NCBI GenBank assembly: GCA_017519885.1
Contig: JAFWRO010000007.1
Coordinates: 39,815-103,814, forward strand
DNA from: Bacteroidales bacterium
GTDB taxonomy: Bacteria; Bacteroidota; Bacteroidia; Bacteroidales; UBA3663
Length of the DNA stretch: 64,000 nucleotides
Reading direction: 5' to 3'
Shown here: positions 40,796-59,481 of the stretch, one piece after another
Layout of the letters: every line of letters begins with the position of its first letter
Numbering within the stretch: position 1 is the first letter of the stretch
Notes under the pieces: model-generated
The model's input: only the letters and a program-made list of their open reading frames with translations
What the model was told of the DNA's origin: nothing
Database searches by the model: none
Translations under genes and position numbers: made by a program

Positions 40796-40835
40796 AAAAA
40801 ACTCCGAAACCCGCGATAGATTTCGGAGCTTTTTT
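40796..40835. terminator. Bidirectional intrinsic terminator; ends the minus-strand surface-protein operon
   Basis: AAAAAA-CTCCGAAA-11 nt-TTTCGGAG-CTTTTTT, with a perfect 8-bp stem and U-tracts on both strands. Confidence 0.8.
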
Positions 40836-40895
40836 ATTTCTGATGCAGATACATATATGCCAAATATCTACATTGAAGCCATAGACTCACAAAAA

Positions 40896-42571: not shown

Positions 42572-42581
42572 TACTTAATAA

Positions 42582-45500
42582 TTATTTTGATATTTTCTTG
42601 CCATTAATAATATAAATGCTTTTCTGCAAGCTTGAAGCATTGCCATCGTACCTTAACATTCTTCCAGTAAGATCATAGACTGTAGCATTGCTTCCGAATT
42701 CTTCAGTAAGTGTGGTTATACCTGTACTATTGCTGGAGATGTCAACATGGAGCGAACTCTCGTTCATAGCAAAGGTGGCGCCATTTGCTGAAAGTATGGC
42801 ATTCTCAATGTCAATAGTGTAGATGCCTTCGCTGTCTGCTGCCAGGGTTATAGCTATCACACCACTTTCAGAGGTTTCTCCAATGGTAGAAGCACAAAGC
42901 ACACGAAGAGTGTTGTCATTTACCATGCGGCTCATGAACAAGTCTGAAGCCTTTGTCTGTCCACTGACATCTTTCACAGTCAATCCCTCGGGAAGAATCA
43001 TATCAAACTGATAGCCTGAATATGCGTAAATGCCGTTAATGCTGACAGCAACAGTAAACTCCTTATCTATTGAAGCAACTACATCATTCGCTCCAATCGT
43101 TGCATATTTTGCAGCCACGTCATCATGTGCTTTTGCATGAGAAGCATTGGAAGAAACAGAGCCATAAAGAATAAGATTTGCTTCTCCTGTCAAGTCACTG
43201 ACACTTATCACGCCATCAACATTGACATCGGCAGCTTTCTCAACGAATGTGGCAGGCGGTGTACCCATGATGAAGTTGGCAATAGCTGTGAAGTCACTCA
43301 CGCCGATGCTACCATCATTGTTGGCATCGCCAAGCGTATAAGAGGAGATGGTCAGTGTTGTCTTAACGTAGCTGACACGGTATGCATTGGAATTGGCATC
43401 TGAGATCTCGATGTTCTTCAGAATGAGGGGATATGTTCCTTCTTCGATGTCGGGATCAATATCGACAATCAAATAAGCGACCTCGCCCTCATTGCCACTA
43501 AAGGTGTAGCTCTTTGTCGAACTGCACATGAAACGCAAGCCACCGTCAGATTGCAGAGCACTGTTGGAGTAGTCAGTCTTCTTCGACGTAGTTCGTTCTG
43601 TACTGATGTCTATCAAGTAGAAGCCATCCTCGTCCTGTGCAGCCGTCACTCCATCGGGCAGATAAACGTCGCATTGGAAACCTGTAGGTGCAATCGTGTT
43701 GTTCATCTTCAGCGAGAGACGCACTTGCTGTCCGGCTGCGGCTTCTGCTCCTTCGATATAGACAATATTATCATAGGCCAGGATGTCAGTATCTTCACCG
43801 GCAGTTACTTGCTTTGCCTTGAATGCAGCCACTGCATTGTTGATTTCGTTAGTGCAAGCTGTAATAGTCTCATCGTCCATTGTTGAGCTTATCTGTGCAC
43901 GGACGTTCCTGATTACTGCCAACAGAGCAGCGCGTGCTCCTACTTCATATTGTCCTATATTCTCGCCTTCTGTACTGTTGTCATATAGAGCTTGAGCCTC
44001 GTCAACGAGAGCCTGTAGTTCAGCAATGGCAGCATCATGGTTGGCAACGACTGTTACCTTGCAAGTAGCACTGATATTACTGCCGTCGGTAGAAGTGGCT
44101 GTGATAGTAGCGGTGCCCACACCGACAGCTGTCACTTCACCATCGGCAACAGTTGCCACAGCGTTGTTGCTTGTCGTCCAAGCGATTCGTTTGTTAGTGG
44201 CGCCAAGAGGCATCACGCTGGCAGTGATGGTGGCGCTGTTGCCCTGTGCAATGATCAGAGTATTGTTGTCGAGAGTAATCTCAGTGACGGGGTTGACATC
44301 TATTTCCCAAAGGAGATAGGGATAAGCTTCACCTTCCTCAATGGCCCATACAGAAGAATAGTCCCAGCCAAGGCCAATGTAAGTTTGGGCTGTCTGTAAT
44401 ACAGACTCCGTTTTGGCTATACCTTCCACCTTGTCATCAGTCTTCTTCTGTGCCACACCGTTCAGTGATACTTGCATGGTTGACAAAGCATAATTGCTGT
44501 CGTCCGGCTCGGGACAACCATTCTTGAAACCTCCGATGACACGGCTGCCCCATGAGCTCTGTGCGCTCAGAGACAGGATGTTGTTGGCTGCCACACTATT
44601 TGTCAATGCAGCCGTAGTTCCATCAAGCTGAGCGACTACACCTGCCCCGTATCTAACGCCGTAGATATCCCCCTTGGCATAACATTTGTCAATGGTGGAG
44701 AATGTATAAGCACAGATGCCGGCCGTGTAATAAGTTCCCGTCACCTTAGCGGTTGAGTAGCTGTTCACAATTGGGCTGTTAGCATAGCCAACAAGACCGG
44801 CGGTGTAGGAGTCGTCGCCTGAAGCGGTAATCTCACCTGTAGTGTAGCAGAGCGTTACATCTGCGTTGCTATACCCGATAGCACCACCGACGTAGTCATT
44901 GGCTCCTGTTGCAGTGAGGGCATTCTCAGCATGACTCTTGGTCAGTGTTCCATTGTTCGCCCGACCTATGAGGCCACCGACGAACGAGTCACTGCCTGTA
45001 GCAGATATCGTCGTGTAGGTATGAACGGCTGTGATGTTGTCGTCCTCTGAGAGTCCTGCGAAACCGCCGACGTATGCGCCCGTTGCACTTGTGGAGACAT
45101 TGCCCTCGTATGTGACTGCGTTGATGGTGTTATTGCCCGAGTAACCTGTAACGCCACCGACATGAGCGGTGCCCTCGACATCACCTTTCACAGTACAGTT
45201 GAGCAACTGACCATTAGCATTACGTCCGATAAGCACGCCTGTATAGTCTCCACCTTTCACTTTCTTGCCACTGGCCACTTCAACAGTAAGATTCTTGATG
45301 ATACCGGCCGAGAAATTGGAGAAGAGGCCCGTGTAGTCCTGCGTGGTGTTAATCCAAAGCCCACTAATCTTGTGTCCGTCGCCATTGATATAGGTAGCCT
45401 CACCGGAGTTGCGGCCGATGCTTATCCAACCCTCGGTCGGAGAGTTTTCGTTAATCCAAGAGGCAAGGTCGATGTCGTTCATCACCTTGTAATACCCCTT

Positions 45501-47693
45501 GTTGCTTGCGCCCTGAAGGTCTTCTGCCGTATAGATACGATATGGATCCGCCTCTGTACCACTGCCAGGATAGCCTACGGTGGTCGATGTTAGGTAAGAC
45601 GGAGTCATATCATCTACATCGGCATAGAGCTGAACAGGAGCACCCGACTGTAAAGCATCGGTCGTAAACGACCAGGCATGGCCGTTGCAAATGGTGCTGA
45701 CAGCCTCCCTATCCTTATAATAGAGATATACAGTACCGTCGTTGAGTGACGAACCACTAATTGCAGTTTCTTGACTCACAAGAGTTGACTCAATGACTGG
45801 TGGAGCAGCCTGATACTTCTTGTAAGGGAAGCATTCGGTCTCCAGAATATCCCAATTGTTGTCGAAATCCCAACCAAGAGCTACGTAGTTTGCCTTCAGT
45901 CGCAGGAGCGAAGGGCCCATAACGTTGCCATTTTGCAGATCATCAGTAATCTCCTGCACAACACCTTGAAGAATAACTTTGGTAGTAGTCAATGCTCGGT
46001 TGCCTTCGGCTGAAGCCAAAGCACCGATGTTTAAATAATCATTTTTAGTACCGTAAATTCGGCCAATGTTCTCTACAGTTGCCGAAATCGTATTATTGAT
46101 TGCGACATTCGACTTCAACGTCAGCTCTGAAGTGGAATATCCTTCACCATTGCCGATAATGCCGCCTATGTTGCTGTCGCCATATACAGTTGCATTCGTG
46201 TAACAGTTTTGAATCCTACCACACCACTTATAACCAGCGATGCCACCGACGTTACGTGTACCCTTGATGATGCCGGAATAGTAGCTATTGGTGTAGATAA
46301 GGGCTTTTACTCGGATGTTGGGAGACCATTCTGGCAGATATTGTTGTTGTCTCTGCCCTGTATAAGAGTCACCATACCAAAGATAGCAAAAGGCAGAATT
46401 ATACCAACCTACACCTATAGTAGCAGCCCCTCCGTTCCTCCAATCTGAGCATCCAAATGTTTTTTCGTCCCAGCCGACAAGACCTCCGATATAAGAGGAT
46501 CCGGTCATATTACCGATTGCGAGGCAATTGTTGATTGCAATCTCATCTGTTCCAGTGCAGAAATCAATCGTGGAAGCCGTTACATCCTTCGAATTGGTAT
46601 CACTGCTTGTACTAATATAAATATGTTCTGCATCAGAATTGCCGGCAAGGGTTGCTCCGATTAAACCGCCCACATAATTCACACCGTTGATGTCACCGAA
46701 GTGGCTACAACTTTCCATGCCTGAAATACATCCGCCTTTACTTAAGCCGACAACACCACCTGTATAATCACCCGTGTTCGTTATCTTGCCTTTTGAATGG
46801 CAGTTTGTAAATGATACTGAGATGCCCAAGTCGAGATTTCCTGCAATACCTGCTATATATGACGTGCCTGTCAAATCGCCAGTATATTTGCAATTTGTCA
46901 GGGAACTCGTTCCAGCAGAAATGTTTCCAACAATACCACCAGTCATTGAGGATCCCGTTATGCTTCCGTTAGCTACACAATCTGTGAGCGTCGTCGCCTG
47001 CATTGCTCCGACAATGCCGCCTACCTGTTGATCTGAGCCAATAACATTGCCGTTCATTGTACAGTTGCTTACTGCACACGCATCTAAGAGACCAGCAATT
47101 CCTCCAGTATAAGAAGGACAGGTTACATCACCAGTATAGGAGCAGTTTGTCATGGTGGAATTATCGCAATGACCTGCTATGGCACCAGCAGAACCATCAG
47201 AAGCAACAAGCATTGACGAACCAGTTAACTCAGCGGAACAGTTGCTGATTGTGGAGTTAATGGCATTGCCAACGAGCACACCGACATATAGATTGCCAAT
47301 GACATCTGTTCCTTGAACAGTAAAATCCTGAATAGTAGCTCCATCAATATATCCGAAGAATCCAACATTGTCGATTGTGCTTTTGTTGATGCTCAATCCA
47401 CTAATCGTGTGATTATTGCCCAAAAACTTTCCTTTAAAGCGAGAAGTTTCGACACCGACGGGTGTCCAGCCTTCTGAGGGAAAGTTTTCTGCAATGAACT
47501 TCGTCAGGTCGAGGTCTTTCATCAATTTGAACACTACTCCCTCTTGATTGAGGAAGTTTGACATCTGATACAACTGTGTCTCATTATAGATGAGATACGG
47601 ATCGTTCTCAGTTCCATTACCGGAACCGGTATACTGTGCTGATGCCCAAATTGAGCTGAGCATACATGCTAAAAGTAGAAGATAACGCTTCAT
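42582..47693 (-). CDS. Giant T9SS-sorted surface protein: two GLUG-repeat beta-helix regions, Big_2 Ig-like domain, cohesin-like module, dockerin, cohesin-like module, C-terminal sorting domain
   Basis: 1703 aa with signal peptide MKRYLLLLACMLSSIWASAQ. It carries many GG(I/L/V)(A/V)G GLUG motifs and a Big_2 block (ITLDNNTLIIAQGNSATITASVMP...ISATCKVTV). The canonical dockerin has two loops, DANNDGSIGVSD and DVNVDGVISVSD. The T9SS tail is VYDLTGRMLRYDG...IYIINGKKISK. Confidence 0.85.
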   Translation of the reverse strand: MKRYLLLLACMLSSIWASAQYTGSGNGTENDPYLIYNETQLYQMSNFLNQEGVVFKLMKDLDLTKFIAENFPSEGWTPVGVETSRFKGKFLGNNHTISGLSINKSTIDNVGFFGYIDGATIQDFTVQGTDVIGNLYVGVLVGNAINSTISNCSAELTGSSMLVASDGSAGAIAGHCDNSTMTNCSYTGDVTCPSYTGGIAGLLDACAVSNCTMNGNVIGSDQQVGGIVGAMQATTLTDCVANGSITGSSMTGGIVGNISAGTSSLTNCKYTGDLTGTSYIAGIAGNLDLGISVSFTNCHSKGKITNTGDYTGGVVGLSKGGCISGMESCSHFGDINGVNYVGGLIGATLAGNSDAEHIYISTSSDTNSKDVTASTIDFCTGTDEIAINNCLAIGNMTGSSYIGGLVGWDEKTFGCSDWRNGGAATIGVGWYNSAFCYLWYGDSYTGQRQQQYLPEWSPNIRVKALIYTNSYYSGIIKGTRNVGGIAGYKWCGRIQNCYTNATVYGDSNIGGIIGNGEGYSTSELTLKSNVAINNTISATVENIGRIYGTKNDYLNIGALASAEGNRALTTTKVILQGVVQEITDDLQNGNVMGPSLLRLKANYVALGWDFDNNWDILETECFPYKKYQAAPPVIESTLVSQETAISGSSLNDGTVYLYYKDREAVSTICNGHAWSFTTDALQSGAPVQLYADVDDMTPSYLTSTTVGYPGSGTEADPYRIYTAEDLQGASNKGYYKVMNDIDLASWINENSPTEGWISIGRNSGEATYINGDGHKISGLWINTTQDYTGLFSNFSAGIIKNLTVEVASGKKVKGGDYTGVLIGRNANGQLLNCTVKGDVEGTAHVGGVTGYSGNNTINAVTYEGNVSTSATGAYVGGFAGLSEDDNITAVHTYTTISATGSDSFVGGLIGRANNGTLTKSHAENALTATGANDYVGGAIGYSNADVTLCYTTGEITASGDDSYTAGLVGYANSPIVNSYSTAKVTGTYYTAGICAYTFSTIDKCYAKGDIYGVRYGAGVVAQLDGTTAALTNSVAANNILSLSAQSSWGSRVIGGFKNGCPEPDDSNYALSTMQVSLNGVAQKKTDDKVEGIAKTESVLQTAQTYIGLGWDYSSVWAIEEGEAYPYLLWEIDVNPVTEITLDNNTLIIAQGNSATITASVMPLGATNKRIAWTTSNNAVATVADGEVTAVGVGTATITATSTDGSNISATCKVTVVANHDAAIAELQALVDEAQALYDNSTEGENIGQYEVGARAALLAVIRNVRAQISSTMDDETITACTNEINNAVAAFKAKQVTAGEDTDILAYDNIVYIEGAEAAAGQQVRLSLKMNNTIAPTGFQCDVYLPDGVTAAQDEDGFYLIDISTERTTSKKTDYSNSALQSDGGLRFMCSSTKSYTFSGNEGEVAYLIVDIDPDIEEGTYPLILKNIEISDANSNAYRVSYVKTTLTISSYTLGDANNDGSIGVSDFTAIANFIMGTPPATFVEKAADVNVDGVISVSDLTGEANLILYGSVSSNASHAKAHDDVAAKYATIGANDVVASIDKEFTVAVSINGIYAYSGYQFDMILPEGLTVKDVSGQTKASDLFMSRMVNDNTLRVLCASTIGETSESGVIAITLAADSEGIYTIDIENAILSANGATFAMNESSLHVDISSNSTGITTLTEEFGSNATVYDLTGRMLRYDGNASSLQKSIYIINGKKISK

Positions 47694-47757
47694 AATTTTT
47701 TGGTTTGAATGTTTATATATATAAGACTATCTTTGTCCAAATCATGCGAACTTAATA

Positions 47758-48303
47758 TTATAGTGAATTCTTCGTAAGGATAAACATATACATATTCTCA
47801 ACGTTCTTGTATTTTTCAAAATACTTGCATAGCTCCGCTTGCTTAGACTTATCCTCAAGTAATGCTACTACAAAAAAAGCACAATGATTATAGTTGTCAT
47901 TTAAGATTGAATCTGCTTTCTTTAAATCTTTTTCAATAGTTGCTATGCTATCTTTTTCACGATAGTATTTTAACTCCATCGCAACAGAATCTCCATAATA
48001 TATAAATTCTTTGTGGTGTATGTCTCCTTTTTGCAAATCAGCATTCTTCATGACTAATATATCCACCTGATAGTCGCGCTTATTTTCTTTTGACAAACAC
48101 TCTGAAGGATATGGATAATGGGAAATCTGATTATGAACAGAGAAAGGATTCTCTTTTTGCATACATAAACATCTATCAATCTCATTTGATAGGTGTCTTT
48201 CTAAGTCAGCCTCAGTCAGGATAATTTCAGGATTAACTTTAATTCTGTTTGCACATGCATCGATAGCCACTTTTATGGCATTAATAAGTTCATTGAATTC
48301 CAT
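47758..48303 (-). CDS. Hypothetical protein with a PD-(D/E)xK nuclease-like motif, in a visibly AT-rich gene
   Basis: ORF 47758..48366; the likely start is MEFNELINAIK at 48303. It has YQVDILVM...(about 25 aa)...VAMELKYY, the spacing and pattern of D...(D/E)xK. No signal peptide. Confidence 0.45.
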   Translation of the reverse strand: MEFNELINAIKVAIDACANRIKVNPEIILTEADLERHLSNEIDRCLCMQKENPFSVHNQISHYPYPSECLSKENKRDYQVDILVMKNADLQKGDIHHKEFIYYGDSVAMELKYYREKDSIATIEKDLKKADSILNDNYNHCAFFVVALLEDKSKQAELCKYFEKYKNVENMYMFILTKNSL

Positions 48304-48370
48304 AGATTCTTTAATTGTGTCTATAGAAGCCCAATATAGCAGTTGAACTACTGTTTGTACTGACACAACG

Positions 48371-48539
48371 AAAAAACGCAGGCTTCCACTTCAACTCGTC
48401 AGCTCTTGAGGCCCTGAGAATTGCCCTTGTGTGTTGACGAGTAGAGTGTCTGCCTGCGCTAGTATGTATGTGCCTCCGGGGAAAAGTGTGTAGGAGGATA
48501 AAAGATACCCTCACTGCACACCCCGGCACACCGATATAA
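48371..48539 (-). ncRNA. Candidate structured RNA or leader: about 70-nt extended hairpin plus about 82-nt nested hairpin ending in U6
   Basis: Hairpin 1 (48470-48539) has stems GTGCC..GGGG/CCCCGGCAC, GTGTG/CACAC and GAGG/CCTC. Hairpin 2 has an outer stem CGCAGGC (48377-83)/GCCTGCG (48452-58) and an inner stem ACTCGTCA/TGACGAGT. On the minus strand it is followed by TTTTTT (48376-71). A -7 box TATCTTTG lies at 48705-48712 (minus). Confidence 0.35.
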
Positions 48540-48849
48540 GCATACCAGTAGCATTCACTTCTGACATTGCCATTGACACACAAATTGAAATTTCTCAGGT
48601 TTCAAGAAGCCAATAGACAAAGCATCGATGACGCTTTTACATTATGTAGTGCCTTTGCCAATGATATAGACATATAGCCTATATACAATTAACATTGACG
48701 GCTCCAAAGATACAAAAATAATCAATTAATTAATCAAAAAAGGTTAAAAACTGAGAATCGAGGCATATATACTTCACATTTCGTTAAAAAATGACAAATC
48801 GAGATATCTTTTATAGTCCGTTTGGCGAACCGCATGAATGTATAAAAAT

Positions 48850-51315
48850 TTAGTTCTCGCACATCACCACCGACTCTCCTGCCTGAAGCTCCAGCAGGAA
48901 GCATCCGTCAGCGCCCTTCATGATTCCTCCTACCCTGCCATCGGCAGTGTGGAACACCGTCAGTGCGTCGGCCTTGGTGCCGAACACGACGCGTTGCGCC
49001 TGCCCGGTGATGTTGGCCAGAAAGAACATATCGCGCCCATCAACCAATCGATGCGTATGCACCACGGCCTCATCACCTTCCAGTATCTGAAGCGGTCTTT
49101 CGACATCGAAAGCTTGCTTGAGCACCTGTACCCCACTTGCCTGTAATCGTTCGAGTGCAGCCTGCGATGCGGGAATGACGGTGGCATCATCGGCAATGAG
49201 CAATGCCCTATAGGTGATGCCGTCGGGTGTCGTGAGTTGTCCGTCGGCGGTAGGCGAAAGCCTGTGTTGCAAGGCATCGCCCGTACACACGTCCCAATCC
49301 AGGCCGTGCAGACCGTGAGGCAACCGATGGGTCAACGTCTTCATAGGCAGATCGTCGCCCATATAGACCAGCACGTCGGGTGCCGCCTTGCCCAGTCGCA
49401 GCATCGCCATCGAGCGATTCAGTGCCATCCACATCGGCTTCATGTCCTCCCATTGCGGATTGCTGCGGTTTACGGCATAGACGCGACCTGCAACGTAAGG
49501 TTCCGTGGGATGCGCCATGGGCAGATGCGGCGTAGCGCACACCACCATCTCCTGTGCCCCATTGGCCAAAGCGATATCGGCCACACGCTTCAAACTGAGA
49601 GGCGTATCCTCGTAACTTGCATCGGTCATGGCCTCTGCCGAAGCGATAGGCTTGCCGTAGAGGTGGCAGGCCGAAGCACCGTCCTTGACGTCCCAGGCAC
49701 CATTTTTCTGATAGGCCCAGAATTCCGTCTGCGGCTTGTCCACCACCTGCTTCACATCGATGGCATCACCCGTAATGCAAAGTCCGTTGCCGATAGCTTG
49801 TGCCGTGAAAGTGAGCCCGTTCTCTCTTGCCAGACGCTGAAATGTGCCGTAGTAGTTTTCTCTCATGCAATCGTTCACAGTCCTTCGTAGGTCCAGGAGT
49901 ACGTTCTTCGTCTTTTCGACCGAATCAATGATGTAACCTGCCAGCATAGGCAGATATGGCTTCAAATCATATCCGCGCCGCATCTGGAACTCCTCCAGCA
50001 TCTGCGGTGTCCAATTTTGCGAACCGCCTTCATGCGAGTCCATGCAGACACCTTCCACCCAGTCGATGCCGTTGGTACGCAAAGTATCGAGAATGGGCTG
50101 CATATAACTGTTCCAATGCAGTTCGGCAGCTTCCTTCGAAAGTTTGTCACATTCATAGCCTAAAAGATTCTCTCTACCATGTTTCGAACGTGCTCCCGTC
50201 AGCACAGCTGCAAACCTAACAACACGCCACGAAGAGCCCTCTGGAGCTTTCCAGTGCAGTCGTCCATCTTTTATTTTTGAAGTGAGGTCAATGATGTCGC
50301 ACGACCTTACTACCTCGTCAGCGGCATACGTTGGACTTTTGTCTTGTTCCGAGAAATCGCTATGCAGGGCGGCACGTTCCTCCCATCGGTCCAGTTTTGC
50401 CTCCTGCCCCACACTCAACGTGCGCAGCAGTGTATCGCCGTAATACTTCACTCTAAATTGTTTCGCACGAGTGGCAGGGAATGCCGTTGTGCGGAAGGAA
50501 TAGCCGCTTAGGCTGCTGTACATATGCTGCAGTTCCACCACATCTTTCCACAATTCGCCATCCTCACTTGCTTGCAGCATTCCGATGGGACCAAACGTCT
50601 TGAAGAGAGCACCATCGAAGGGTCTTGGCCCCTCAATCATCGTTTCCTTTGTCTCTCGTTCCAAAACAGAATCGGGCATCTGCATTGCCCCGTTCCTGCC
50701 CTTTCCTCGGGCCACATAACGCGCCGTGAAGTGCCGATAGATGTCCGGTTCATTCCTCACAGGAAAAGCCATGACGGCAATGTCTTTCACATATCCACGC
50801 GTATCGGCTATTGCAGGCAGATCCACATCAATTTCCTGTCCTCCCTCTATCGTCATCTCTGCCGAGGTCACCCGTTGCATGGCATGAGGCGGATCAATCC
50901 ATCGTCCACCTGCCACGTAACCATTTGAAATATTTAGTTCGAACGTAAGCCCCACGCGATGTGCTTCACGTGCCGCAAACTTCAGGTGTTCCCACCACGT
51001 TGGTGAGAAGCCATCCTCTGGTTCATTCTCTTGTTTCAAACGATTATCCCCTTCCACGGCCTTCCTGCTGGGGCGATGGTTCTGATCATAATAAACCACG
51101 CCACCGAATCCAGCCTCTTTGAGCGACTCCACATCTGCCGTGATCCCTTCGTTTGTGGTGTGCTCATATCCGAAGAACCACCACGTCTTGACGCGGCTGT
51201 CGTTCCTCGTCTCCGCCGCTTTCCATACTTCAATCAGTTTATCATTGGGAGCCTGCGAGAAGAGACTGATGCTCGAAAATAGAGCCAAAAAGGGAAGAAT
51301 ATACCTTGTTTTCAT
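48850..51315 (-). CDS. Glycoside hydrolase, GH106-like (second paralogue)
   Basis: ORF 48850..51372, trimmed to MKTRYILPFLALFSSISLFSQ. The N-terminal block is RVKTWWFFGYEHTTNEGITADVESLKEAGFGGVVYYDQ. The architecture matches 20657..23089. Confidence 0.6.
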   Translation of the reverse strand: MKTRYILPFLALFSSISLFSQAPNDKLIEVWKAAETRNDSRVKTWWFFGYEHTTNEGITADVESLKEAGFGGVVYYDQNHRPSRKAVEGDNRLKQENEPEDGFSPTWWEHLKFAAREAHRVGLTFELNISNGYVAGGRWIDPPHAMQRVTSAEMTIEGGQEIDVDLPAIADTRGYVKDIAVMAFPVRNEPDIYRHFTARYVARGKGRNGAMQMPDSVLERETKETMIEGPRPFDGALFKTFGPIGMLQASEDGELWKDVVELQHMYSSLSGYSFRTTAFPATRAKQFRVKYYGDTLLRTLSVGQEAKLDRWEERAALHSDFSEQDKSPTYAADEVVRSCDIIDLTSKIKDGRLHWKAPEGSSWRVVRFAAVLTGARSKHGRENLLGYECDKLSKEAAELHWNSYMQPILDTLRTNGIDWVEGVCMDSHEGGSQNWTPQMLEEFQMRRGYDLKPYLPMLAGYIIDSVEKTKNVLLDLRRTVNDCMRENYYGTFQRLARENGLTFTAQAIGNGLCITGDAIDVKQVVDKPQTEFWAYQKNGAWDVKDGASACHLYGKPIASAEAMTDASYEDTPLSLKRVADIALANGAQEMVVCATPHLPMAHPTEPYVAGRVYAVNRSNPQWEDMKPMWMALNRSMAMLRLGKAAPDVLVYMGDDLPMKTLTHRLPHGLHGLDWDVCTGDALQHRLSPTADGQLTTPDGITYRALLIADDATVIPASQAALERLQASGVQVLKQAFDVERPLQILEGDEAVVHTHRLVDGRDMFFLANITGQAQRVVFGTKADALTVFHTADGRVGGIMKGADGCFLLELQAGESVVMCEN

Positions 51316-51341
51316 AGTTGTCCTGTTTATCCTCTTGCGTG

Positions 51342-51349
51342 CAAAGATA
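51342..51349 (-). promoter_or_regulatory. -7 box TATCTTTG(CA) for the GH106-like gene
   Basis: The minus strand reads GCTTATCTTTGCACGCA about 27 nt upstream of the ATG at 51315. Confidence 0.55.
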
Positions 51350-51410
51350 AGCTTTTTCAAAGCATATTCCAAATAATTTAGGGAGAAAGTGGAATCGACG
51401 CAGAATTAAA

Positions 51411-51848
51411 TGGACAAATTGGGACATAATTGGACAAATTTGGACAGTGCCAAATTTCGATTTCGTAACTTTGCAGCGAAAAAGGAATGCGGACAAAAGC
51501 GGACATTTCCGGACATATGCGGACAAATGCGGACAGTGCCAAATTTCTTTTTTGTAACTTTGCATCGTGAAAAAGCAATTTGCTGAAAGGTGACAAAAGG
51601 TGACAAATAGTGACAAAAGGTGACAGTGCCAAATTTACTTTTCGTAACTTTGCAACGTGAAAGAGGTTATGTATCGGAAAGTGACATAAAGTGACATAGA
51701 CTGACACAAACTGACAGTGCCAAATTTACTTTTTGTAACTTTGCAGCGAGAAAAAGCATTGTTCCGAAAACTGACAAAAACTGACAAAAGCCGACAAAAA
51801 CCGACAAATTCGGACATTGCCAAATTTGCTTTTCGTAACTTTGCAACG
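51411..51848 (+). repeat. Five tandem ~90-bp units, each with 4-5 phased 10-bp GACA iterons plus a conserved ~35-bp core carrying a TAACTTTGCA -7-like box
   Basis: The cores GACAGTGCCAAATTTnnTTTTCGTAACTTTGCAnCG end at about 51478, 51567, 51657, 51748 and 51848. Iteron flavours differ by unit: TGGACAAATT, GCGGACAnnn, GGTGACAAAn, (A/C)(G/T)TGACAnAA, and CTGACAAAA/CCGACAAAA. Confidence 0.9.
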
Positions 51849-52020
51849 TAAAACGATTAATGGTCGCACAGCTCAAAATTATAAAAAAATTGAATCAAAA
51901 AATTATAAGAAGAAAGGGACGAAATTGACCACAACTATTTTGGTACAATCCTCCTTTGATAATTTTAAAACTAATTTTCTTATAATTTTGAGCGCAGCGA
52001 CCCCAAAAATAAAAAAAACA

Positions 52021-52887
52021 ATGAGACCAAGAGTACTGACAATGGACTACATCAACGTGCCGATGGCACTGCTGCAGGAGGTCAAGGACGACCCCTTGCA
52101 GTGGAGCCTCGTCGCCCTCAGTGTAGCCATGAAGTGCCTTAGTCCCAGCAGCACCTACATCTTCACCAGTGAGAAGAAGTTCCGTGGTGACTTCCATCTC
52201 GGCTACACCAAGGCGCGAAATCTCCTCGAAGCCATCCGCGAAGGCAACAGCCTGTTCCAGATGACGACATGTCCCAACGGCAGGACAATCATCGTTGCCC
52301 GCTCGCTGAAAAAGATTTACGCCTCCAAAGTCATCCTCAAGGACGGACGCAAGAGCCTTGAGATGGTCGTAGGAAAGATAAGGTGCTGCACCCGCGAAAA
52401 CCTCCACGTCACAGAAATCGAAAGCGAGATGCGCCAACTGCTTCTCCTGACCAACATCAGTGCCAAGACCCGCGCCGACGAGTTACAATCGAAGGGGCTT
52501 CCCCTCACGGGAAGTGCTTCTCATGCGGCAAAGACCATCTTGTCAGTGAACTACCTGGCCAGGGCAACAGGACGCAGCCCTCGCACCGTCAGTCGAATGA
52601 CCAAGGCCGCCCGTCAGCAGCGTGTGATCAACGTCATCCAGTATCCGCTCGTCCGGTGCTGCGATGACATCCTCCACACCCTGCCACCTGACTCGGTCGG
52701 CAAGGTCATCCGCATCGGTTTCCTCGGCTTCACTCGTCGCTGCAACGACTACCAGCTCCTCTCGTGGGACTGGCGCCACCGTTTCCAGCACATCCTCTAC
52801 GCCCATCGTCGCCGTCTTACTCAAAACCTCGTCCTCCGTCATGGCGAGGTTCTGAGCCAGACCGATCTCCACGCTCTCTACGATTAG
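52021..52887 (+). CDS. Hypothetical protein with a putative HTH (possible iteron-binding or initiator-like protein)
   Basis: ORF 51817..52887, trimmed to MRPRVLTMDYINV because the upstream part reads through the repeat array. The HTH-like segment is SVNYLARATGRSPRTVSRMTKAARQQ. GACA iterons flank it on both sides. Confidence 0.6.
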   Translation: MRPRVLTMDYINVPMALLQEVKDDPLQWSLVALSVAMKCLSPSSTYIFTSEKKFRGDFHLGYTKARNLLEAIREGNSLFQMTTCPNGRTIIVARSLKKIYASKVILKDGRKSLEMVVGKIRCCTRENLHVTEIESEMRQLLLLTNISAKTRADELQSKGLPLTGSASHAAKTILSVNYLARATGRSPRTVSRMTKAARQQRVINVIQYPLVRCCDDILHTLPPDSVGKVIRIGFLGFTRRCNDYQLLSWDWRHRFQHILYAHRRRLTQNLVLRHGEVLSQTDLHALYD

Positions 52888-52915
52888 AAAACGCGACAAA
52901 AACTCGACAAGCAAT

Positions 52916-52949
52916 CATTGTTAATTGTTAACTGTTAATTGTTAATTGC
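52916..52949. repeat. TTGTTAA heptamer microsatellite
   Basis: CATTGTTAATTGTTAACTGTTAATTGTTAATTGC, the same motif as at 37681 and 38596. Confidence 0.8.
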
Positions 52950-53093
52950 TCTCGGGTCCACTTTGTCCTCCTATAAATAAACGAAGGGTCTAAGAGAGAG
53001 AGTTTAAAGAATGGGAATACGAAAAATGAGTGTGTGCGTAAAAAGAAGAGAGGAAGTAGATGAAAGGTGGGAAGCGAGACAAATTCTCCTGGA

Positions 53094-53173
53094 GGAAATA
53101 GTCGGGGCTTTTAGCCCCCCTACCCCCCCTCAAAGGGGGGCGGGGTAGGCTAAGCCCCACTAAGACTATTTCC
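53094..53173. repeat. 80-bp GC-rich imperfect palindrome (REP/MITE-like hairpin)
   Basis: GGAAATAGTC-GGGGCTT-TTAGCC-CCCCTACCCC..caaa..GGGGTAGG-CTAA-GCCCC-(5-nt bulge)-GACTATTTCC. The arms pair along almost the whole length. Confidence 0.8.
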
Positions 53174-53258
53174 AAGAGAATTTGTAGAGCGAAGCATCTT
53201 GAGAGTGATTTTATTGATAAACAACCAACCAAAATTATTAACCCTTTAAAAAAAAAGT

Positions 53259-53747
53259 ATGATTTTCATCAAACAAATCACCACAGTTGAGGAGCTCTGG
53301 AACACAGCAGGGGCTCCCACCGGACAGATCGCCGTCGATGCCGTCGTCGATTACGTCAAGCGAGTAAACAGTCATTCCGCACAGCAAGTCGCCTTCTACC
53401 TGAACGTCGATCAGCGTTTCCTGAACGAGACGATGAAGTTGTTCGTAGGCGTCAGCCTCAAGGAGTTCATCATGCAATGGCGTATGCGCCAAGCTCTCGA
53501 CCTGCTCGATGACGAGAACCTCTCAGTCGAGGAAGTGGCCCATCGCTGTGGATTCCGCCGAGTAAAGAACCTCATTGCCGCCATCCACGCACGTTTCGGC
53601 ACCACCCCGTATGCCTATCGCAATGGCTCCGTACTCCGCAACGGCAACTACCGATTCAACCAGGAGACGCACCAGCGCAAGAGCATCATCGAGAATGCTG
53701 AGAAACTCCGCTCCCGCAACGAGAAACCCACTCCGAAAGAAGAATGA
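53259..53747 (+). CDS. AraC-family helix-turn-helix domain protein (short, 162 aa)
   Basis: FIMQWRMRQALDLLDDENLSVEEVAHRCGFRRVKNLIAAIHARFGTTPYAYR is a typical AraC-type double-HTH C-terminal region. Confidence 0.8.
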   Translation: MIFIKQITTVEELWNTAGAPTGQIAVDAVVDYVKRVNSHSAQQVAFYLNVDQRFLNETMKLFVGVSLKEFIMQWRMRQALDLLDDENLSVEEVAHRCGFRRVKNLIAAIHARFGTTPYAYRNGSVLRNGNYRFNQETHQRKSIIENAEKLRSRNEKPTPKEE

Positions 53748-53764
53748 TCCATCTCCAACGTCGG

Positions 53765-54177
53765 CATAACCTTTTTTGGCCAAGATTGGTTATGCTCCCA
53801 TCGCTGCATACCCTTTCTTGGCCAAGATTGGTTATTCTCCCATCGCTGCATACCCTTTCTTGGCCAAGATTGGTTATGCTCCAACCGGAGCAAGCATTCT
53901 GTCGGCCGTCAGAGTACTCTATCCAACCGCGGCATAACCATTCCTGGCCAAAACTGGTCATTCTCCTCCCTCCGCATACCCTTTCTCGGCCAGGATTGGT
54001 TATGCTCCCATCGGCGAAAGCATTCTGTCGGCCGTCAGAGTACTCCATCCAACCGCGGCATACCCATTCTTGGCTAACTTTGGTCATTCTCCCATCGTCG
54101 CATACCCATTCTTGGCCAAAATTGGTCATGCTCCTGCAGAAGAATACCCAATCTTGGCCAAGATTGGTCATGCCTCG
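53765..54177. repeat. Tandem array of about 8 copies of a 42-bp partially palindromic unit; two units carry an extra 42-bp insert
   Basis: The unit is CATAaCCtTTcTTGGCCAAGATTGGTTATGCTCCCATCGCTG, with a nested palindrome CATAACC...TTGGCCAA...GGTTATG. The insert AGCATTCTGTCGGCCGTCAGAGTACTCnATCCAACCGCGG occurs twice. Long ORFs are open on both strands (53744..54238 + and 53686..54246 -). Confidence 0.9.
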
Positions 54178-54212
54178 ATTTCCACCACGCATCCTATCCA
54201 TTTTGGTTCTGC

Positions 54213-54400
54213 GCAATCGGTTGAATCGCGAAAAATAATGAGCCACAACAATCTTTTTTCTCGTTGAATGAGCATTATATCAAAAAAATGCGTATATTTG
54301 CACGCAGAAATGAATTCCTATCATTTCACATCATTCTACCCATTTCGGTTCCGACCTGCCATGTGACGGGCGTTAGCGAAGTTGTGCAAGAAGATTGCCA
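54213..54400 (+). repeat. Conserved ~190-bp module, copy A: GCAATCGGTTGAAT box, -7 promoter box, 18-codon ORF
   Basis: It aligns with 56745-56930. Shared blocks are GCAATCGGTTGAAT, GCATTAT.TCAA.AAAAATGCGTAT.TTGCA, CTTCTACCC, GTGAC.GG and A.CGAAGTTGTG. The -7 box TATATTTG is at 54293-54300. The micro-ORF 54310..54366 encodes MNSYHFTSFYPFRFRPAM. Confidence 0.75.
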
Positions 54401-54668
54401 TTCTATTTGGGCGTGACTATAAGAGCATCAGCAAGCATATCAATAAAGCGCGTAAAGAGGAATTTGCAGGTTCTGTGGTAGTCGCAAAATTTGCGAATAC
54501 CACTCGACATGGAAATGAGCATTATATAAAAAATGAAGAAAGAGAATTATAAACAACAAATCGAGCAATTTTGCCTTAAAGAAAAGCAAAACAAGCATTC
54601 TAAATGTTAAATTTGCAAAATATATGCAGATTCTCAAAATAAAAGTTCATTAATTGGGATTTTATCTT

Positions 54669-54676
54669 TATATTTG
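54669..54676 (+). promoter_or_regulatory. -7 box TATATTTG(CA) for the AAA15 ATPase gene
   Basis: CTTTATATTTGCACCG lies about 23 nt upstream of the ATG at 54699. Confidence 0.6.
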
Positions 54677-54698
54677 CACCGAGAAAAACGCCAAATAT

Positions 54699-55991
54699 AT
54701 GATACAGGAAATAAAAATCAGAAACTTTTTATCGTTCAAAGATGAAGTAAAATTCAGCTTTGAGGCTACAAACGATAAGTTTGCCGAAGATTCCCAGGTA
54801 GTAACAATCAACGAGAATACCAGACTGTTACGATTTGCCATCATCTACGGCTACAATGCTTCGGGAAAATCTAATTTGATAAGCGTTTTAGATTTTTTGT
54901 CTTACTTCTGGTCTGCTAAACCTAACGACATGGATTCAAAGACCGGAGTAATACCTTTTAAGCTTGATGGCATATCTTCAGACAAACCTTCAAGCTTTGA
55001 GGTAGTATTCTTTGTGCAAGATACCAAATATTGCTATCAGTTGGAATTGGATCAGCATCAGGTATATTTAGAGAAGCTGTCATATTACAAAACGACTCAG
55101 CCCATCATGTTGTTTGAAAGGACGCTGAAAGATGGGCAGTCGGATATTCAATTTAATCCAAAGGCAGAAAAGATAAGTTCCGCAGCAAAAGATATGATAA
55201 GCGTAAATTGCCTGAAGAATACGTCTTTCTTCGTAGCACGCAACCAGGTGAACGTGAACCTTCCGATTATCGATGCGGCAAAAGATTGGATGAGGAAACA
55301 GCTGATGCCTGTGATTTCACCGACAACTGGTCTAACTTCCTACGCCCAAAAGAAAGCTTCGGAAAACAGATCATTGATAAACTACATCGTAAAATTTCTG
55401 CATGAAGCCGATTTCAACGTTACAGATGTTTCAGCCAATGTCATTAGCAAACAACTGACAGATGATGCGGTAAAGTACCTAACAGAAGAGAGTGACATCG
55501 CTGATGAAGAGACTGCAAGGGAGGTTGAAAGAATCAAAAAAGAACGAACGATCAAGCAGATTCAGACGGTATTTGAACACACGGTAGAAAATGACAATGG
55601 AACAGAGACCTACCAGATGGACAAAAAGGAAGAATCCACAGGAACGATGCGGACTTTTGGAATCGAAGCAGCCCTTTATGAGGCACTTAAGGACGAAGCA
55701 GTTCTACCGATTGATGAATTAGAGACATCGCTACACCCAATGCTGTTAGAAAAGATCTTGTTTGAATATCTGAAGACACCTTCAAGATCTCAGCTTATTG
55801 TCACAACGCACAATGACGGGTTGCTGGATTTGCTTGATGACTTAATCCGAAAAGACTCAGTCTGGTTTACCGAGAAAAAGAAGTCCGGCATTACAGACCT
55901 TTACAAGCTCACAGATTTCCGAGGGATCAATCGACTTTCGTCAATAAGGGAGGCATACCGAAACAAACGTTTTGGAGCCACAATGAGATAA
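54699..55991 (+). CDS. AAA15/AAA_21-type ATPase (OLD/Abi-like ABC ATPase)
   Basis: ORF 54654..55991, trimmed to MIQEIKIRNFLSFKDEV. Walker A is GYNASGKSN. Walker B/D-loop is VLPIDELETSLHP. The H-loop region is LIVTTHN. Confidence 0.85.
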   Translation: MIQEIKIRNFLSFKDEVKFSFEATNDKFAEDSQVVTINENTRLLRFAIIYGYNASGKSNLISVLDFLSYFWSAKPNDMDSKTGVIPFKLDGISSDKPSSFEVVFFVQDTKYCYQLELDQHQVYLEKLSYYKTTQPIMLFERTLKDGQSDIQFNPKAEKISSAAKDMISVNCLKNTSFFVARNQVNVNLPIIDAAKDWMRKQLMPVISPTTGLTSYAQKKASENRSLINYIVKFLHEADFNVTDVSANVISKQLTDDAVKYLTEESDIADEETAREVERIKKERTIKQIQTVFEHTVENDNGTETYQMDKKEESTGTMRTFGIEAALYEALKDEAVLPIDELETSLHPMLLEKILFEYLKTPSRSQLIVTTHNDGLLDLLDDLIRKDSVWFTEKKKSGITDLYKLTDFRGINRLSSIREAYRNKRFGATMR

Positions 55992-55995
55992 AACC

Positions 55996-56718
55996 ATGGA
56001 GGAAAGAGAAATTGCAGAAGGCATAGAGAAGCGTCCCTATTTTGAAACTGTCTCTCCTGTTTCGATGCCATTACCAGATGACGGAACGAGGGAGATGGGC
56101 GAGCTTTACCCATTTCTCATTTGTGGAGGCACAAACACTGAGCGCTATTATTTTACGCATATCAACGACAAAACAGAATACAAATTCAACATAAGGCCAA
56201 GGTACTTTGGCGATGAGTCGAATTATACCAACGCTTTCCCCAAAAGAATTAGAGAAGTGCTCAGTGCCAATAACGATGCGAAGATATATTGTGTATTCGA
56301 TTGGGACACGATATATGGTGATGGGACAAAGCTAAAGAAACATGAGGCTTTTGAAAAGCAATTCCAAACAGAAATCCTCAATGGAACAGTTACGATATGT
56401 CCCAGTATGCCTTGCATTGAGTATTGGTTTCTACTTCACTTTTGGGATTATACCAAGCTTTTGAAGAGCTATGGAGAAGTTGCGGACTTGTTGGCTCCAC
56501 ACTTGAAGCCGTGCTTCCCGTATGAGGATATCTCTTTGAAGAAGCTATTGAAAACCGAGAAGTATCTTATAGACCCTACGTGGGTCGAGAATCTATGCGC
56601 CGAAGGGAAACTTGCGTTAGCGATTGAGCGTGCCGAGAAAAATATTGTTGCTGCTGTTGCAAATGGAACTCTAAAAGAACAATCGTTCTCCTATGTTTAT
56701 AAGGTTTTTAAGAAGTGA
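55996..56718 (+). CDS. RloB-like (Toprim-related) protein, partner of the AAA15 ATPase
   Basis: 240 aa, starting 4 nt after the ATPase stop. FLICGGTNTERYYF resembles the RloB N-terminal (CEG.kTE..YF) block, and a later acidic block is IYCVFDWDT. Confidence 0.65.
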   Translation: MEEREIAEGIEKRPYFETVSPVSMPLPDDGTREMGELYPFLICGGTNTERYYFTHINDKTEYKFNIRPRYFGDESNYTNAFPKRIREVLSANNDAKIYCVFDWDTIYGDGTKLKKHEAFEKQFQTEILNGTVTICPSMPCIEYWFLLHFWDYTKLLKSYGEVADLLAPHLKPCFPYEDISLKKLLKTEKYLIDPTWVENLCAEGKLALAIERAEKNIVAAVANGTLKEQSFSYVYKVFKK

Positions 56719-57715: not shown

Positions 57716-58936
57716 ATGGACAACCTATCACATTTCCACTCGTTAGAAGAACTGATACGTGCGCTGGACAGGGAGCGCCGACTGCTTCAAGCCCTGTTTC
57801 AGGACAGGAAGAAGCTGTCGTTCCGCTATGACCTGGCACGCGAATTGGCGAGCAAGCGTGATGAAAGCCTTGAGTTTCTGCGACGACACGGCATCATTCG
57901 TGAGAATATCGACTTTGTAGAACTGGAGGACGTATATCTGAAGTTCTTCGAGGATGTGCTGGAGGTGAACGAGGAGATCAGTGTGGCTAGCGTCAAGGAG
58001 AGCATCGACAGCTTGAACAATGCCATAGACTACTATCTCAGCGAGAACAATCCCGGCAGGAAGTACGGCTATCTGCGCGATGTTAAGCGGATACTGCGTA
58101 GCATTGCGCTCACGACCCTGAGGAACGTCATCGACCTGAAACGTAATATAGACAACACCTACAAGAACGAGCCGACCTTTGCCATCAAGAAAAAGAAACT
58201 GGTGCATCTCGATGAAAAGCGTCAGGACATTGCGGCCCTGATCAACGAATGCGAGAGGGTGATTGACGAGAAACAGACCACGTTCTTTATGGTGGCGATG
58301 GACGTACAGTTGAAAGACATCGTGACGGACGTGAAACTGCAACTGCGCGAGGTATATCACAACCTATTGGAGCTCGACCGACAAATCATCAACTACCTGA
58401 ACCTCATAGAGTACCAAAGCCGTCTGTTTCAGAAGGTGCAGAAGCTGAAATACCTGCGCGACCAGATGCTGCTCGACACGAATACCGACATACGGGCAAA
58501 GCTGCAGACGAGGAATCCCGTATGGATGGAACCACGGCCGAGATATGCGCTGAAGGTATCGCTCTCCATGCTCCGAAATTCGGAAGAAGGCCTCAGGGTG
58601 CTGCAGGATGTAGCCAAAGGAAAGGGCAATAGCCGTCTGAGGAAAGGGAATCTGGCCGAACCGCTGACGAAGAGCGAGCTGACAGAACAGCAGGAGGTGC
58701 TGCAGATGGTTGACGTAAGCGAGGTGAAGAATGCGTTCATGGCTTCGAGCGACCACCTGTTTCACTTCGTGATGAACTATTCCGGCTACAGAATCAAGAT
58801 GGACGATGAGGCGAAGCTGGTGCTCTTCTGTCAGATTGCCACACAGTATCTTGACGAACTGCATATCGATGACGAATTCCGTCAATATGGAGCCATCGAG
58901 TATCCCGTTATCTATCCACACTCAAAGATGATGTAA
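57716..58936 (+). CDS. jetA: JetA-like (kleisin/MksF-like) subunit of a Wadjet-like system
   Basis: 406 aa, helical and charged, first gene of a tightly packed 4-gene operon. The assignment rests on position and size only; no motif could be verified by eye. Confidence 0.5.
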   Translation: MDNLSHFHSLEELIRALDRERRLLQALFQDRKKLSFRYDLARELASKRDESLEFLRRHGIIRENIDFVELEDVYLKFFEDVLEVNEEISVASVKESIDSLNNAIDYYLSENNPGRKYGYLRDVKRILRSIALTTLRNVIDLKRNIDNTYKNEPTFAIKKKKLVHLDEKRQDIAALINECERVIDEKQTTFFMVAMDVQLKDIVTDVKLQLREVYHNLLELDRQIINYLNLIEYQSRLFQKVQKLKYLRDQMLLDTNTDIRAKLQTRNPVWMEPRPRYALKVSLSMLRNSEEGLRVLQDVAKGKGNSRLRKGNLAEPLTKSELTEQQEVLQMVDVSEVKNAFMASSDHLFHFVMNYSGYRIKMDDEAKLVLFCQIATQYLDELHIDDEFRQYGAIEYPVIYPHSKMM

Positions 58937-58941
58937 ACAAT

Positions 58942-59481
58942 ATGCGCTATACGAAAGAAATATTCGACATACTGAGCAAGGGTGGTTTCATCGCCCAGAA
59001 CTCCATCTCGCAGCAGCGTTCACACCTGTACGATGCCATAGAGGATGACTTCAACGACTATCAGGAGTACTTCAGCGGCATAGGGTTCCAGTTGGAGGGT
59101 GGCAATGGCTACTACTATTTCTCAAGGGCAGAGAACAGGGTGGATCTGACTGACAAAGTGCAACGCCTGGCACAGTGGATTGACCGTGTGGATTTCCTCA
59201 AGACGTTCAACAACACCTTTGCATCGGGCTTTACGTTCCGCAAGTCGAACATCCTCGAACAGTTCTCAAGCGACATCGAGTTGAAGGAAAAGGCACGCAA
59301 CCTATATACGGATGTGAAGACCAACGAAGAGAAGATCGACAAACTGGTAGGCGACCTGGAGCGAATGGGGTTCGTGGAGCTGGAGAACGAGCTGGACGGC
59401 ACCTACAAGGTGACTGCCGCCTTCCACTATATCGAGGAACTGATAGATTGTCTCACCATCATCGAAACGGAAAAGTCATGA
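58942..59481 (+). CDS. jetB: JetB-like (DUF4194/MksE-like) subunit
   Basis: 179 aa. The block YQEYFSGIGFQLEGGNGYYYFSR resembles the DUF4194 pattern (yf..iGl.L..de.eGyayL). It starts 5 nt after jetA-like, and its stop overlaps the next ATG. Confidence 0.6.
   Translation: MRYTKEIFDILSKGGFIAQNSISQQRSHLYDAIEDDFNDYQEYFSGIGFQLEGGNGYYYFSRAENRVDLTDKVQRLAQWIDRVDFLKTFNNTFASGFTFRKSNILEQFSSDIELKEKARNLYTDVKTNEEKIDKLVGDLERMGFVELENELDGTYKVTAAFHYIEELIDCLTIIETEKS

Follow-up and report, generated by a model that had tools for sequence, protein, structure and literature searches.

The question raised by this locus is why a promoter-like sequence should be repeated five times ahead of a single gene, each time behind a run of short repeats set one helical turn apart. 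The repeats lie in a stretch of 64,000 nucleotides of contig JAFWRO010000007.1 from a Bacteroidales bacterium, the whole of which we call the window and in whose positions all coordinates are given unless a locus is named. Each of the five repeat units, which together span roughly 51,411 to 51,848, consists of several 10-bp repeats containing the word GACA (decamers), followed by an almost invariant core, and the array precedes an open reading frame (ORF) at 52021 that encodes a 288-amino acid DNA-binding protein of a family without annotation. The GACA array is part of a conserved module of about 2.8 kb (51377-54173), which further comprises a second gene, encoding a small AraC-type regulator, an intergenic hairpin and a second tandem array. 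The explanation that we favour, at somewhat better than even chances, is that the GACA array is a tandemly amplified promoter in which the -33 element has been replaced by a phased operator, probably bound by a protein of the module itself.

The window contains exactly five copies of the 33-nt core GACAKTGCCAAATTTNNWTTTYGTAACTTTGCA, on the plus strand only, at 51443, 51532, 51622, 51713 and 51813, corresponding to periods of 89, 90, 91 and 100 bp, while 100 shuffles yielded no copy. Ahead of the successive cores stand 4, 5, 4, 4 and 5 GACA decamers at exact 10-bp steps, 22 in total, and Tandem Repeats Finder returned both a 10-bp repeat ahead of each core and a super-repeat of about 90 bp. All 12 matches to GACA-N6-GACA-N6-GACA in the window fell inside the array, against 0.01 expected, and the combination GACA-N19-TAnnTTTG had no further occurrence in the window outside it. 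A preliminary description of this DNA had reported five units with these periods, four to five GACA repeats per unit at 10-bp steps, and five cores all pointing towards the 52021 ORF; the five exact copies, the 22 decamers and the common plus-strand orientation bear it out on each count. Its statement that the flanks of the repeats resemble one another inside a unit but not from unit to unit was right for one side only. The three bases 5' of GACA showed 72% identity within a unit versus 29% between units (permutation p <= 0.0002), in contrast to the 3' flank, which is A/T-rich in all units and gave 63% within versus 59% between (not significant); within-unit homogenisation is confined to the 5' flank of GACA. 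Short ORFs run over the array on both strands and in differing frames, and related arrays differ from one another by whole units and by 10-bp steps, indicating that the array is non-coding, as had been proposed.

Promoters of sigma-ABfr, the primary sigma factor of Bacteroides, carry the elements TAnnTTTG at -7 and TTTG near -33 (PMC7366714). In the window, intergenic promoters read TAnnTTTGCA and lie 9-73 nt ahead of long ORFs (for example at 13976, 34488 and 54669 and, on the minus strand, at 51349, 40190 and 34038), often with AAATTTGG about 20 nt upstream, and these confirm the earlier identification of the core end as a Bacteroidota -7 box. The box TAACTTTG is present in five of five window cores. 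The -33 TTTG, however, expected roughly 19-21 nt upstream of the -7 box, is absent from the units, and GACA stands there instead, separated from the box by a 19-nt spacer. Two of the metagenome matches to the core pattern proved to be promoters of rplC, the gene for ribosomal protein L3, from other Bacteroidota. These read TTTG-C-TGCCAAATTTTATTTCAG-TAACTTTGCA, against GACA-G-TGCCAAATTTCGATTTCG-TAACTTTGCA in the array cores. The two share their -7 box and the length of their spacer; of the 18 spacer bases that follow the first one, 14 agree, and GACA falls exactly at the position of TTTG. Among 47 aligned cores, variation was seen at the 'nn' of the box and in parts of the spacer; the word TGCCAA, which the search pattern did not demand, was nearly invariant, whereas GACA, TA and TTTG were demanded by the pattern and their invariance in the 47 cores is no evidence.

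The position of the array with respect to the gene also fits a promoter. In five loci free of miniature inverted-repeat transposable elements (MITEs) at this place (L001, L002, L003, L005 and L012; handles of this kind denote the individual loci), TTTGCA of the last unit and the ATG lie 16-27 nt apart. In the window, a MITE-like insert of 141 bp, which is shared by L004 but missing from the five loci just named and from the majority of related loci, separates the last core from the ATG. Homologues of the 288-aa protein with 50-62% identity (L009, L010, L013, L014 and L015) are preceded by a single orthologous promoter, AAATTTGGAAAt..GTAACTTTGCAnCG, in which TTTG is normal, and lack an array. 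The core is a promoter and the array belongs to the gene behind it: taken together, the rplC likeness, the single promoters of the distant homologues and the distance to the ATG lead us to conclude that the array is the gene's own promoter, tandemly amplified, and that a phased repeat has taken over the place of its -33 element. Of the candidate roles first listed for the array, it is the battery of operator-controlled tandem promoters that is favoured by these three observations and by the constancy of the 19-nt spacer described below.

The array is conserved beyond the window. A proposed search for the core in related genomes was productive, since a scan of 185,579 species genomes gave 7 loci in four Prevotellaceae/Bacteroidales metagenome-assembled genomes (MAGs) from the rumen and a metagenome scan gave 36 more stretches; protein look-ups added others. 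Rumen MAGs and metagenomes yielded 43 parsed loci with this architecture, comprising 179 units. The number of units per array ranges from 1 to 7, 5 being the commonest, and units have 1-8 decamers, mostly 4-5. Neighbouring GACA words are spaced by 10 bp in 579 of 631 cases (92%), by 11 bp in 29 and by 20 or 21 bp in 23. In all 179 units, exactly 19 nt separate the last GACA from the TA of TAnnTTTG, a box that none of the 179 lacks; the pattern used for the search had tolerated spacers several nucleotides shorter or longer. This strict distance, together with spacings of 10, 11, 20 and 21 bp, argues for a function at the level of DNA, on one face of the helix and coupled to RNA polymerase. Since the same structure is found in 43 independent loci, the array is real and not an assembly artefact, which the preliminary description had kept in view as an objection. 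A homologue of the 288-aa gene lies downstream of the array wherever the contig is long enough, with one exception, L048, in which this gene is missing and the array and a MITE precede the AraC-type gene.

Comparison of the loci also gives an account of how the array may have arisen. By the flanks of their decamers, units fall into type a (TTGGACA), b (CTGGACA/ATGGACA), c (AAGGTGACA, with an 11-bp period), d (GCGGACA), e (GGTGACAAA), f (AGTGACA/ACTGACA) and g (CCGACA/TCGGACA), and their order is fixed among the close relatives of the window. L001 contains all seven types, the window a, d, e, f and g, L002 and L012 a, b, d, e, f and g, L005 a, d and e, and L004 a, b, e and g; unit a comes first in nearly all related arrays, and the leader that precedes it in the window also heads the arrays at a second chromosomal locus (L001, L002 and L005) as well as those of L027 and L053. 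Orthologous units differ by whole decamers, unit d for instance having 4-6 of them across L001, L003, L005, L007 and L012, and orthologous loci differ in their unit totals (6 in L002 versus 3 in L005, 5 in L003 versus 4 in L004). Lineages whose protein is 71-80% identical (L008, L044 and L027) have arrays of 4-5 units with decamer variants of their own and keep the GACA-N19-box rule; the unit order of L044 differs from that of the window lineage. Related genomes keep the unit types in one order, so the ancestor of the array already had several units, and the flank pattern follows from this ancestry combined with 10-bp slippage within units and loss of units through recombination between cores. 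An ancestral single promoter would have been duplicated as a unit, after which the decamers would have grown and shrunk by 10-bp slippage inside each unit, keeping the flanks alike there, and recombination between cores would have removed whole units. The earlier remark that such a pattern is not expected from simple duplication is only half correct, since unit duplication with subsequent within-unit slippage does yield it, in line with the differences of whole decamers between orthologous units. A different MITE, of about 290 bp with inverted repeats GGTGAAAATGGC and GCCATTTTCACC, has been inserted repeatedly just 3' of array cores; it is found in L007 (6040-6330 and 6525-6790 of that locus) and downstream of the arrays in L048 and L050, and in L007 and L048 it stands both within the array and behind the last unit.

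On the mechanism that we propose, each unit of about 90-100 bp would be a complete Bacteroidota primary-sigma promoter, with a 19-nt spacer and the -7 box, and its decamers would lie on one helix face at about -33, -43, -53, -63 and -73, the last one taking the place of the -33 TTTG. The GACA run would be the operator for a module protein, and two genes for DNA-binding proteins, conserved as a pair, lie directly downstream. One candidate binder is the 162-aa AraC-type protein, whose two helix-turn-helix (HTH) motifs would fit two successive decamers; the other is the 288-aa protein, with its putative double winged helix. With the operator at the -33 position of sigma, a bound protein would either recruit or block RNA polymerase. 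Recruitment would resemble the action of PhoB at pho boxes or of MarA at class II promoters; judged on the sequence, occlusion with autorepression is equally possible. All units would fire toward the 52021 gene and probably on through the hairpin region toward the AraC-type gene, so that the array would provide a regulator-dependent drive from one to seven promoter copies and, with about 22 binding sites per array, a large sink for the regulator. The firing of every unit, the choice between the candidate binders and the sign of regulation are all inferred; the array may serve as a rheostat, as a sink or as both. Inverted repeats of the form GACAT..ATGTC occur elsewhere in the module across several lineages, namely in the leaders of units b and d, upstream in L009 and in the 42-bp units of L008, and this recurrence suggests that GACA may be a general recognition word of the module, which fits a module protein that reads GACA.

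Several observations weigh against this proposal. Arrays of 1-3 units exist, hence a high number of units is not essential, and concerted evolution through gene conversion between cores could preserve the upstream boxes without selection. The AraC-type protein is also found in lineages devoid of arrays, and the 288-aa protein has almost the same recognition helix whether or not its lineage has arrays, which argues mildly against this protein as the reader of GACA. In addition, the modelled fold of the 288-aa protein bears a marginal likeness to phage replication initiators, as set out below.

The 288-aa protein gave nothing above threshold in Pfam, NCBIfam, PHROG or PADLOC. It has 43 clusters of close homologues, and a profile search of 1.8 billion proteins returned 130 representative clusters, none of them annotated. 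An AlphaFold2 model (mean pLDDT, the predicted local distance difference test score, 79.7) predicts an N-terminal winged-helix-like domain followed by a long helix, a winged HTH and a beta-rich C-terminal part. This second winged HTH, predicted at residues ~160-212, appears Crp/MarR-like: HTH_Crp_2, MarR and HTH_36 match members of the family, and CRP and MarR chains match positions 157-204 of the profile. Sequence searches of the PDB retrieved generic winged HTH proteins only, and Foldseek against the PDB likewise gave generic winged-helix matches only, with a best E value of 0.04; a Rep fold was considered and not assigned, no PDB match of Foldseek having E < 0.03. Against viral models, Foldseek matched two uncharacterised gut-phage proteins (E 3e-9 and 2e-6) and, at marginal E values of 1e-3 to 0.1, models named 'replication initiator protein', 'replication protein O', 'replisome organizer' and 'DnaD'. 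Some family members showed weak matches to HTH_36 and to a replication-initiator PHROG, and two distant members are located in phage genomes, one adjoining an RNase H gene and the other about 0.7 kb downstream of a DnaB-type helicase gene. Searched with tblastn, 72,556 plasmids and 50,697 phages contained no match to the 288-aa protein, and in IMG/VR neither the core nor the close family was matched. Iterons were also sought in the contigs of the phage homologues (L016 and L019), where no repeat arrays were seen. The L019 contig has two near-identical promoter-like boxes, GTATCTTTG, at 6499-6520 and 6783-6804 of that contig, 284 bp apart, in the 600-bp gap between the DnaB-type helicase gene and the homologue.

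The remainder of the module is conserved as well. The 162-aa AraC/XylS-type protein barely exceeds a two-HTH DNA-binding domain and is about the size of MarA or SoxS; its gene follows the 288-aa gene in almost every locus (L002, L004, L005, L008-L013, L021, L027, L041 and L045). The hairpin between the two genes has a minimum free energy of -65.6 kcal/mol (z -6.3), and 7 of its 36 predicted pairs show compensatory changes, the middle stem being wholly replaced in L013 and still paired; it matched no Rfam family. In the intergenic region equivalent to that of the short repeats past the 288-aa stop codon, L009 has four CAAGCATGGn decamers. In the second tandem array, each 42-bp unit is an imperfect palindrome of about 32-36 bp, GCATAACC..CTTGGCCAAG..GGTTATGC. 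Such an array lies behind the AraC stop codon in every locus with enough sequence, its sequence being unrelated between lineages. In L014, where no AraC-type gene follows the homologue, a 41-bp array is found upstream of the homologue instead. ORFs are open on both strands of the 42-bp region, and we considered a protein with a 14-residue repeat; this was rejected, as the equivalents elsewhere are unrelated in sequence and keep the 42-bp period. The features of the module are listed in Table 1.

Table 1. Features of the module and their positions in the window
Feature	Position	Strand	Details
Conserved leader before the first unit	51377-51410	+	TTTAGGGAGAAAGTGGAATCGACGCAGAATTAA; from alignments and related loci
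Unit a	51411-51475	+	4 decamers with TTGGACA-type flanks; GACA at 51413, 51423, 51433 and 51443
-7 box of unit a	51466-51473	+	TAACTTTG
Unit d	51476-51564	+	5 GCGGACA decamers (51492-51535); -7 box 51555-51562
Unit e	51565-51654	+	4 (G/A)GTGACAAA decamers (51592-51625); -7 box 51645-51652
Unit f	51655-51745	+	4 AGTGACA/ACTGACA decamers (51683-51716); -7 box 51736-51743
Unit g	51746-51845	+	5 ACTGACA/CCGACA/TCGGACA decamers (51773-51816); -7 box 51836-51843; gene-proximal promoter
MITE-like insert, ~141 bp	51862-52002	none	In the 5' leader of the 288-aa gene; 23-bp terminal inverted repeats GGTCGCACAGCTCAAAATTATAA and TTATAATTTTGAGCGCAGCGACC
Gene for 288-aa DNA-binding protein	52021-52887	+	Family without annotation; winged-HTH profile and model matches
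Short repeats just past the 288-aa stop codon	52888-52948	+	GACA-N7-GACA AAAACGCGACAAAAACTCGACA (11 bp apart), then ATTGTTA x4.6
Conserved box preceding the hairpin	52958-52988	+	CCACTTTGTCCTCCTATAAATAAACGAAGGG
Conserved hairpin, ~105 nt	53077-53182	+	Between the two genes
Gene for 162-aa AraC/XylS-type protein	53259-53747	+	HTH_18, E 8.8e-15
Second tandem array	53764-54173	none	42-bp units x9.8; 126-bp super-period

The phage relatives of the 288-aa protein raise the alternative that the locus is an iteron-type origin of replication or a replication control locus, in which this protein would be a Rep- or O-like initiator acting on the phased repeats, the embedded promoters would serve autoregulation as in P1 incC or F-type replicons and the 42-bp array would be a second set of iterons. 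Apart from the marginal fold likeness, the weak HTH_36 and replication-initiator PHROG matches and the company of RNase H or DnaB-type helicase genes in phage genomes, this reading draws on the helical phasing of the repeats and on the presence of repeat arrays on both sides of the gene pair. Iterons usually measure 17-22 bp, however, against 10 (occasionally 11) bp here, and the core is almost identical to a housekeeping promoter. A search of 51300-54400 for the DnaA box TTATCCACA gave nothing even with one mismatch allowed, and stretches of at least 85% AT occur only inside the MITE, leaving no unwinding element; the module has no integrase, helicase or primase gene; and in L048 the array persists without the 288-aa gene. 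Considering also that the plasmid, phage and IMG/VR collections gave no match and that the PDB matches of Foldseek were generic, with E > 0.03, we regard an origin as unlikely, and the iteron or partition site once listed among the candidate roles as weaker than the promoter reading. We also regard as unlikely that the gene-proximal unit alone works and that the upstream units are neutral by-products of unequal crossing-over and slippage, a hypervariable minisatellite that gene conversion keeps uniform. Unit numbers of 1-7 across loci, orthologous ones included, decamer numbers of 1-8 per unit and the tolerance of MITEs within and behind the array are all in keeping with such neutrality, but GACA, the 19-nt spacer and an intact TAnnTTTG are present in every one of the 179 parsed units, none of which has decayed, multi-unit arrays persist where the protein has diverged by about 30% (L008, L044 and L027), and the order of unit types is kept across genomes of the close lineage.

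We consider it very unlikely that the array is a centromere-like or architectural site, whose decamers a module protein would coat for segregation, pairing or insulation of the island, in the manner of ParR on parC of R1 or SopB on sopC. The location of the decamers on one helix face would suit this function, as would the gaps between neighbouring GACA runs, which are mostly 60, 61 or 49-50 bp, with 65 of the 97 distinct junctions lying no more than 1 bp from a multiple of 10, and the 42-bp palindromic array downstream of the gene pair recalls the layout of sopA-sopB-sopC. The cross-unit phase statistic is nevertheless weak (resultant 0.46) and inflated by the shared descent of the units, the module has no gene for a nucleoside triphosphatase (NTPase) of the ParA, ParM or TubZ type, the neighbouring ATPase being AbiLi, and the locus is chromosomal, with no sign of an extrachromosomal form found. 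That the units are five short RNA genes whose 5' parts consist of 10-nt repeats, for instance as a protein-sponging RNA, had been suggested at the outset. Each core is a plausible promoter, and RNAs with GACA repeats would arise if the units fire; even so, the suggestion is highly improbable, as no Rfam family reaches its threshold in the window, no terminator-like elements lie between the units, spacings of 10, 11, 20 and 21 bp track the DNA helix, and the fixed 19 nt tie GACA to the promoter that follows and not to the transcript of the promoter that precedes. The suggestion of stacked attachment (att) site relics, left by repeated integration beside a TTTGC-type core in the style of the CTnDOT family, fares worst and is barely credible. 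TTTGC occurs in every core, the att consensus of CTnDOT being TTTGCNNNNN (PMC2034462), and MITEs have landed just 3' of cores in several loci. Against this, TTTGC belongs to the usual promoter consensus of this organism, the units stand in one fixed order in different genomes, the window contains no direct repeat of the left junction that would indicate site-specific insertion, and the ORFs scanned across 32338-63982 include no recombinase gene.

To the left of the array lies a gene for a GH106 rhamnosidase, on the minus strand, which has a TATCTTTGCA promoter of its own. The island-free flank beside GH106 is homologous up to about 51374-51376, the alignments of the window with L012 and L004 breaking at 51374/51376. 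To the right of the module are an AbiLi/AbiLii pair (54654-56718; E 4.8e-71 and 4.6e-19) and, at 57716-63982, a Wadjet-like set of MksE, DUF3584/JetC-like and DUF7281/JetD-like genes. The cargo varies on both sides: L012 has Nmad2/Nmad3 on the left and restriction-modification and AAA_14/DUF4143 genes on the right, and L008 and L010 have AAA_14/DUF4143 genes. The same site thus holds differing defence cargo across genomes, which marks it as a defence hotspot. The differing left flanks had led us to consider that array and gene form the end of a mobile element; this was rejected, as the loci come down to only two chromosomal positions, where the cargo varies on both sides of the module. It is rather unlikely, in our judgement, that the module acts as a phage-responsive switch, for instance with a phage homologue of the winged-helix protein captured by, or triggering, the arrays, or that it is an in-situ replication or amplification origin raising the dosage of defence genes upon infection. 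Over the whole window, Rfam gave no family at gathering score, and no tRNA genes were found. In L012, a gene for a 358-aa unknown protein, Nmad2 and Nmad3 are arranged divergently from the array (6698-9221 of that locus), and the same set occurs in the left flanks of L003 and L004. A segment of about 8.2 kb in the window (40627-48862), with cohesin, dockerin and GLUG-domain genes that include a 1703-aa ORF, is absent from the orthologous L006, L007 and L012, in which Memo/AMMECR1 abuts GH106. L002 carries a segment homologous to 40627-48862 beside its own copy of the module, a placement that suggests rearrangement between the two module loci.

We found no comparable array described in the literature on Prevotella or Bacteroides, nor a description of this module. 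Phased operators, tandem repeats and iteron-like arrays are each known as ingredients; what we did not find described is a hierarchical array in which complete operator-promoter units are repeated. Little is known of how regulators act at the promoters of Bacteroidota, which lack classical -35 and -10 elements, and the array offers a clean model for activation or repression from the -33 position. A two-level repeat, in which decamers are nested in promoter units of ~90 bp and copy number shifts between close genomes, would represent a novel type of expression rheostat or regulator sink. The module stands at the core of islands with AbiL, Wadjet-like, restriction-modification, Nmad and AAA_14/DUF4143 genes in rumen Prevotellaceae, and may help to explain how these defence islands are organised or controlled. 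The promoter units could, moreover, serve as parts for genetic tools in Bacteroidota.

Among known systems, the CTnDOT att site, in which TTTGC precedes a 5-bp crossover region and which has arm sites and a tyrosine recombinase beside it, shares TTTGC with the cores; the scanned ORFs (32338-63982) contained no recombinase gene. Like the iteron origins P1 incC/oriR, F oriS and lambda ori with O, the array adjoins a gene for a two-winged-helix protein and has a promoter within the repeats, and the fold of the 288-aa protein weakly resembles that of phage initiators; it differs in its 10-bp repeats, and here there is no DnaA box or unwinding element, no match above threshold to a known Rep family and no evidence of a replicon. 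In parC of R1, a promoter is embedded between two sets of five phased iterons. The GACA array shares with it the clusters of about five phased iterons of ~10-11 bp around a promoter, and the 42-bp array at 53764-54173 resembles sopC, with its inverted-repeat units of ~43 bp downstream of a gene for a DNA-binding protein; unlike parC and sopC, the present locus is chromosomal, has no partition NTPase gene and carries a promoter in every unit. At pho boxes with PhoB, tor boxes with TorR and class II promoters with MarA or SoxS, phased direct repeats replace the upstream promoter element and the bound activator recruits polymerase. Here too, direct repeats of 10-11 bp reach and occupy the upstream element, and a gene for a small HTH protein is adjacent. 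The differences are that each promoter has 4-5 repeats instead of 2-4, that the whole operator-promoter is tandemly repeated and that no response-regulator receiver domain is present (a Pfam scan across 32338-63982 gave no OmpR/PhoB response regulator match in the module proteins or their neighbours), binding and activation at the array being putative. Closest of all is the sigma-ABfr promoter itself: the GACA units share with it a perfect -7 box, a spacer of the TGCCAAATTT type that is also seen in rplC promoters, the orientation and the distance from the last unit to the gene, and they depart from it in having GACA in place of the -33 TTTG and one to seven tandem copies in place of one.

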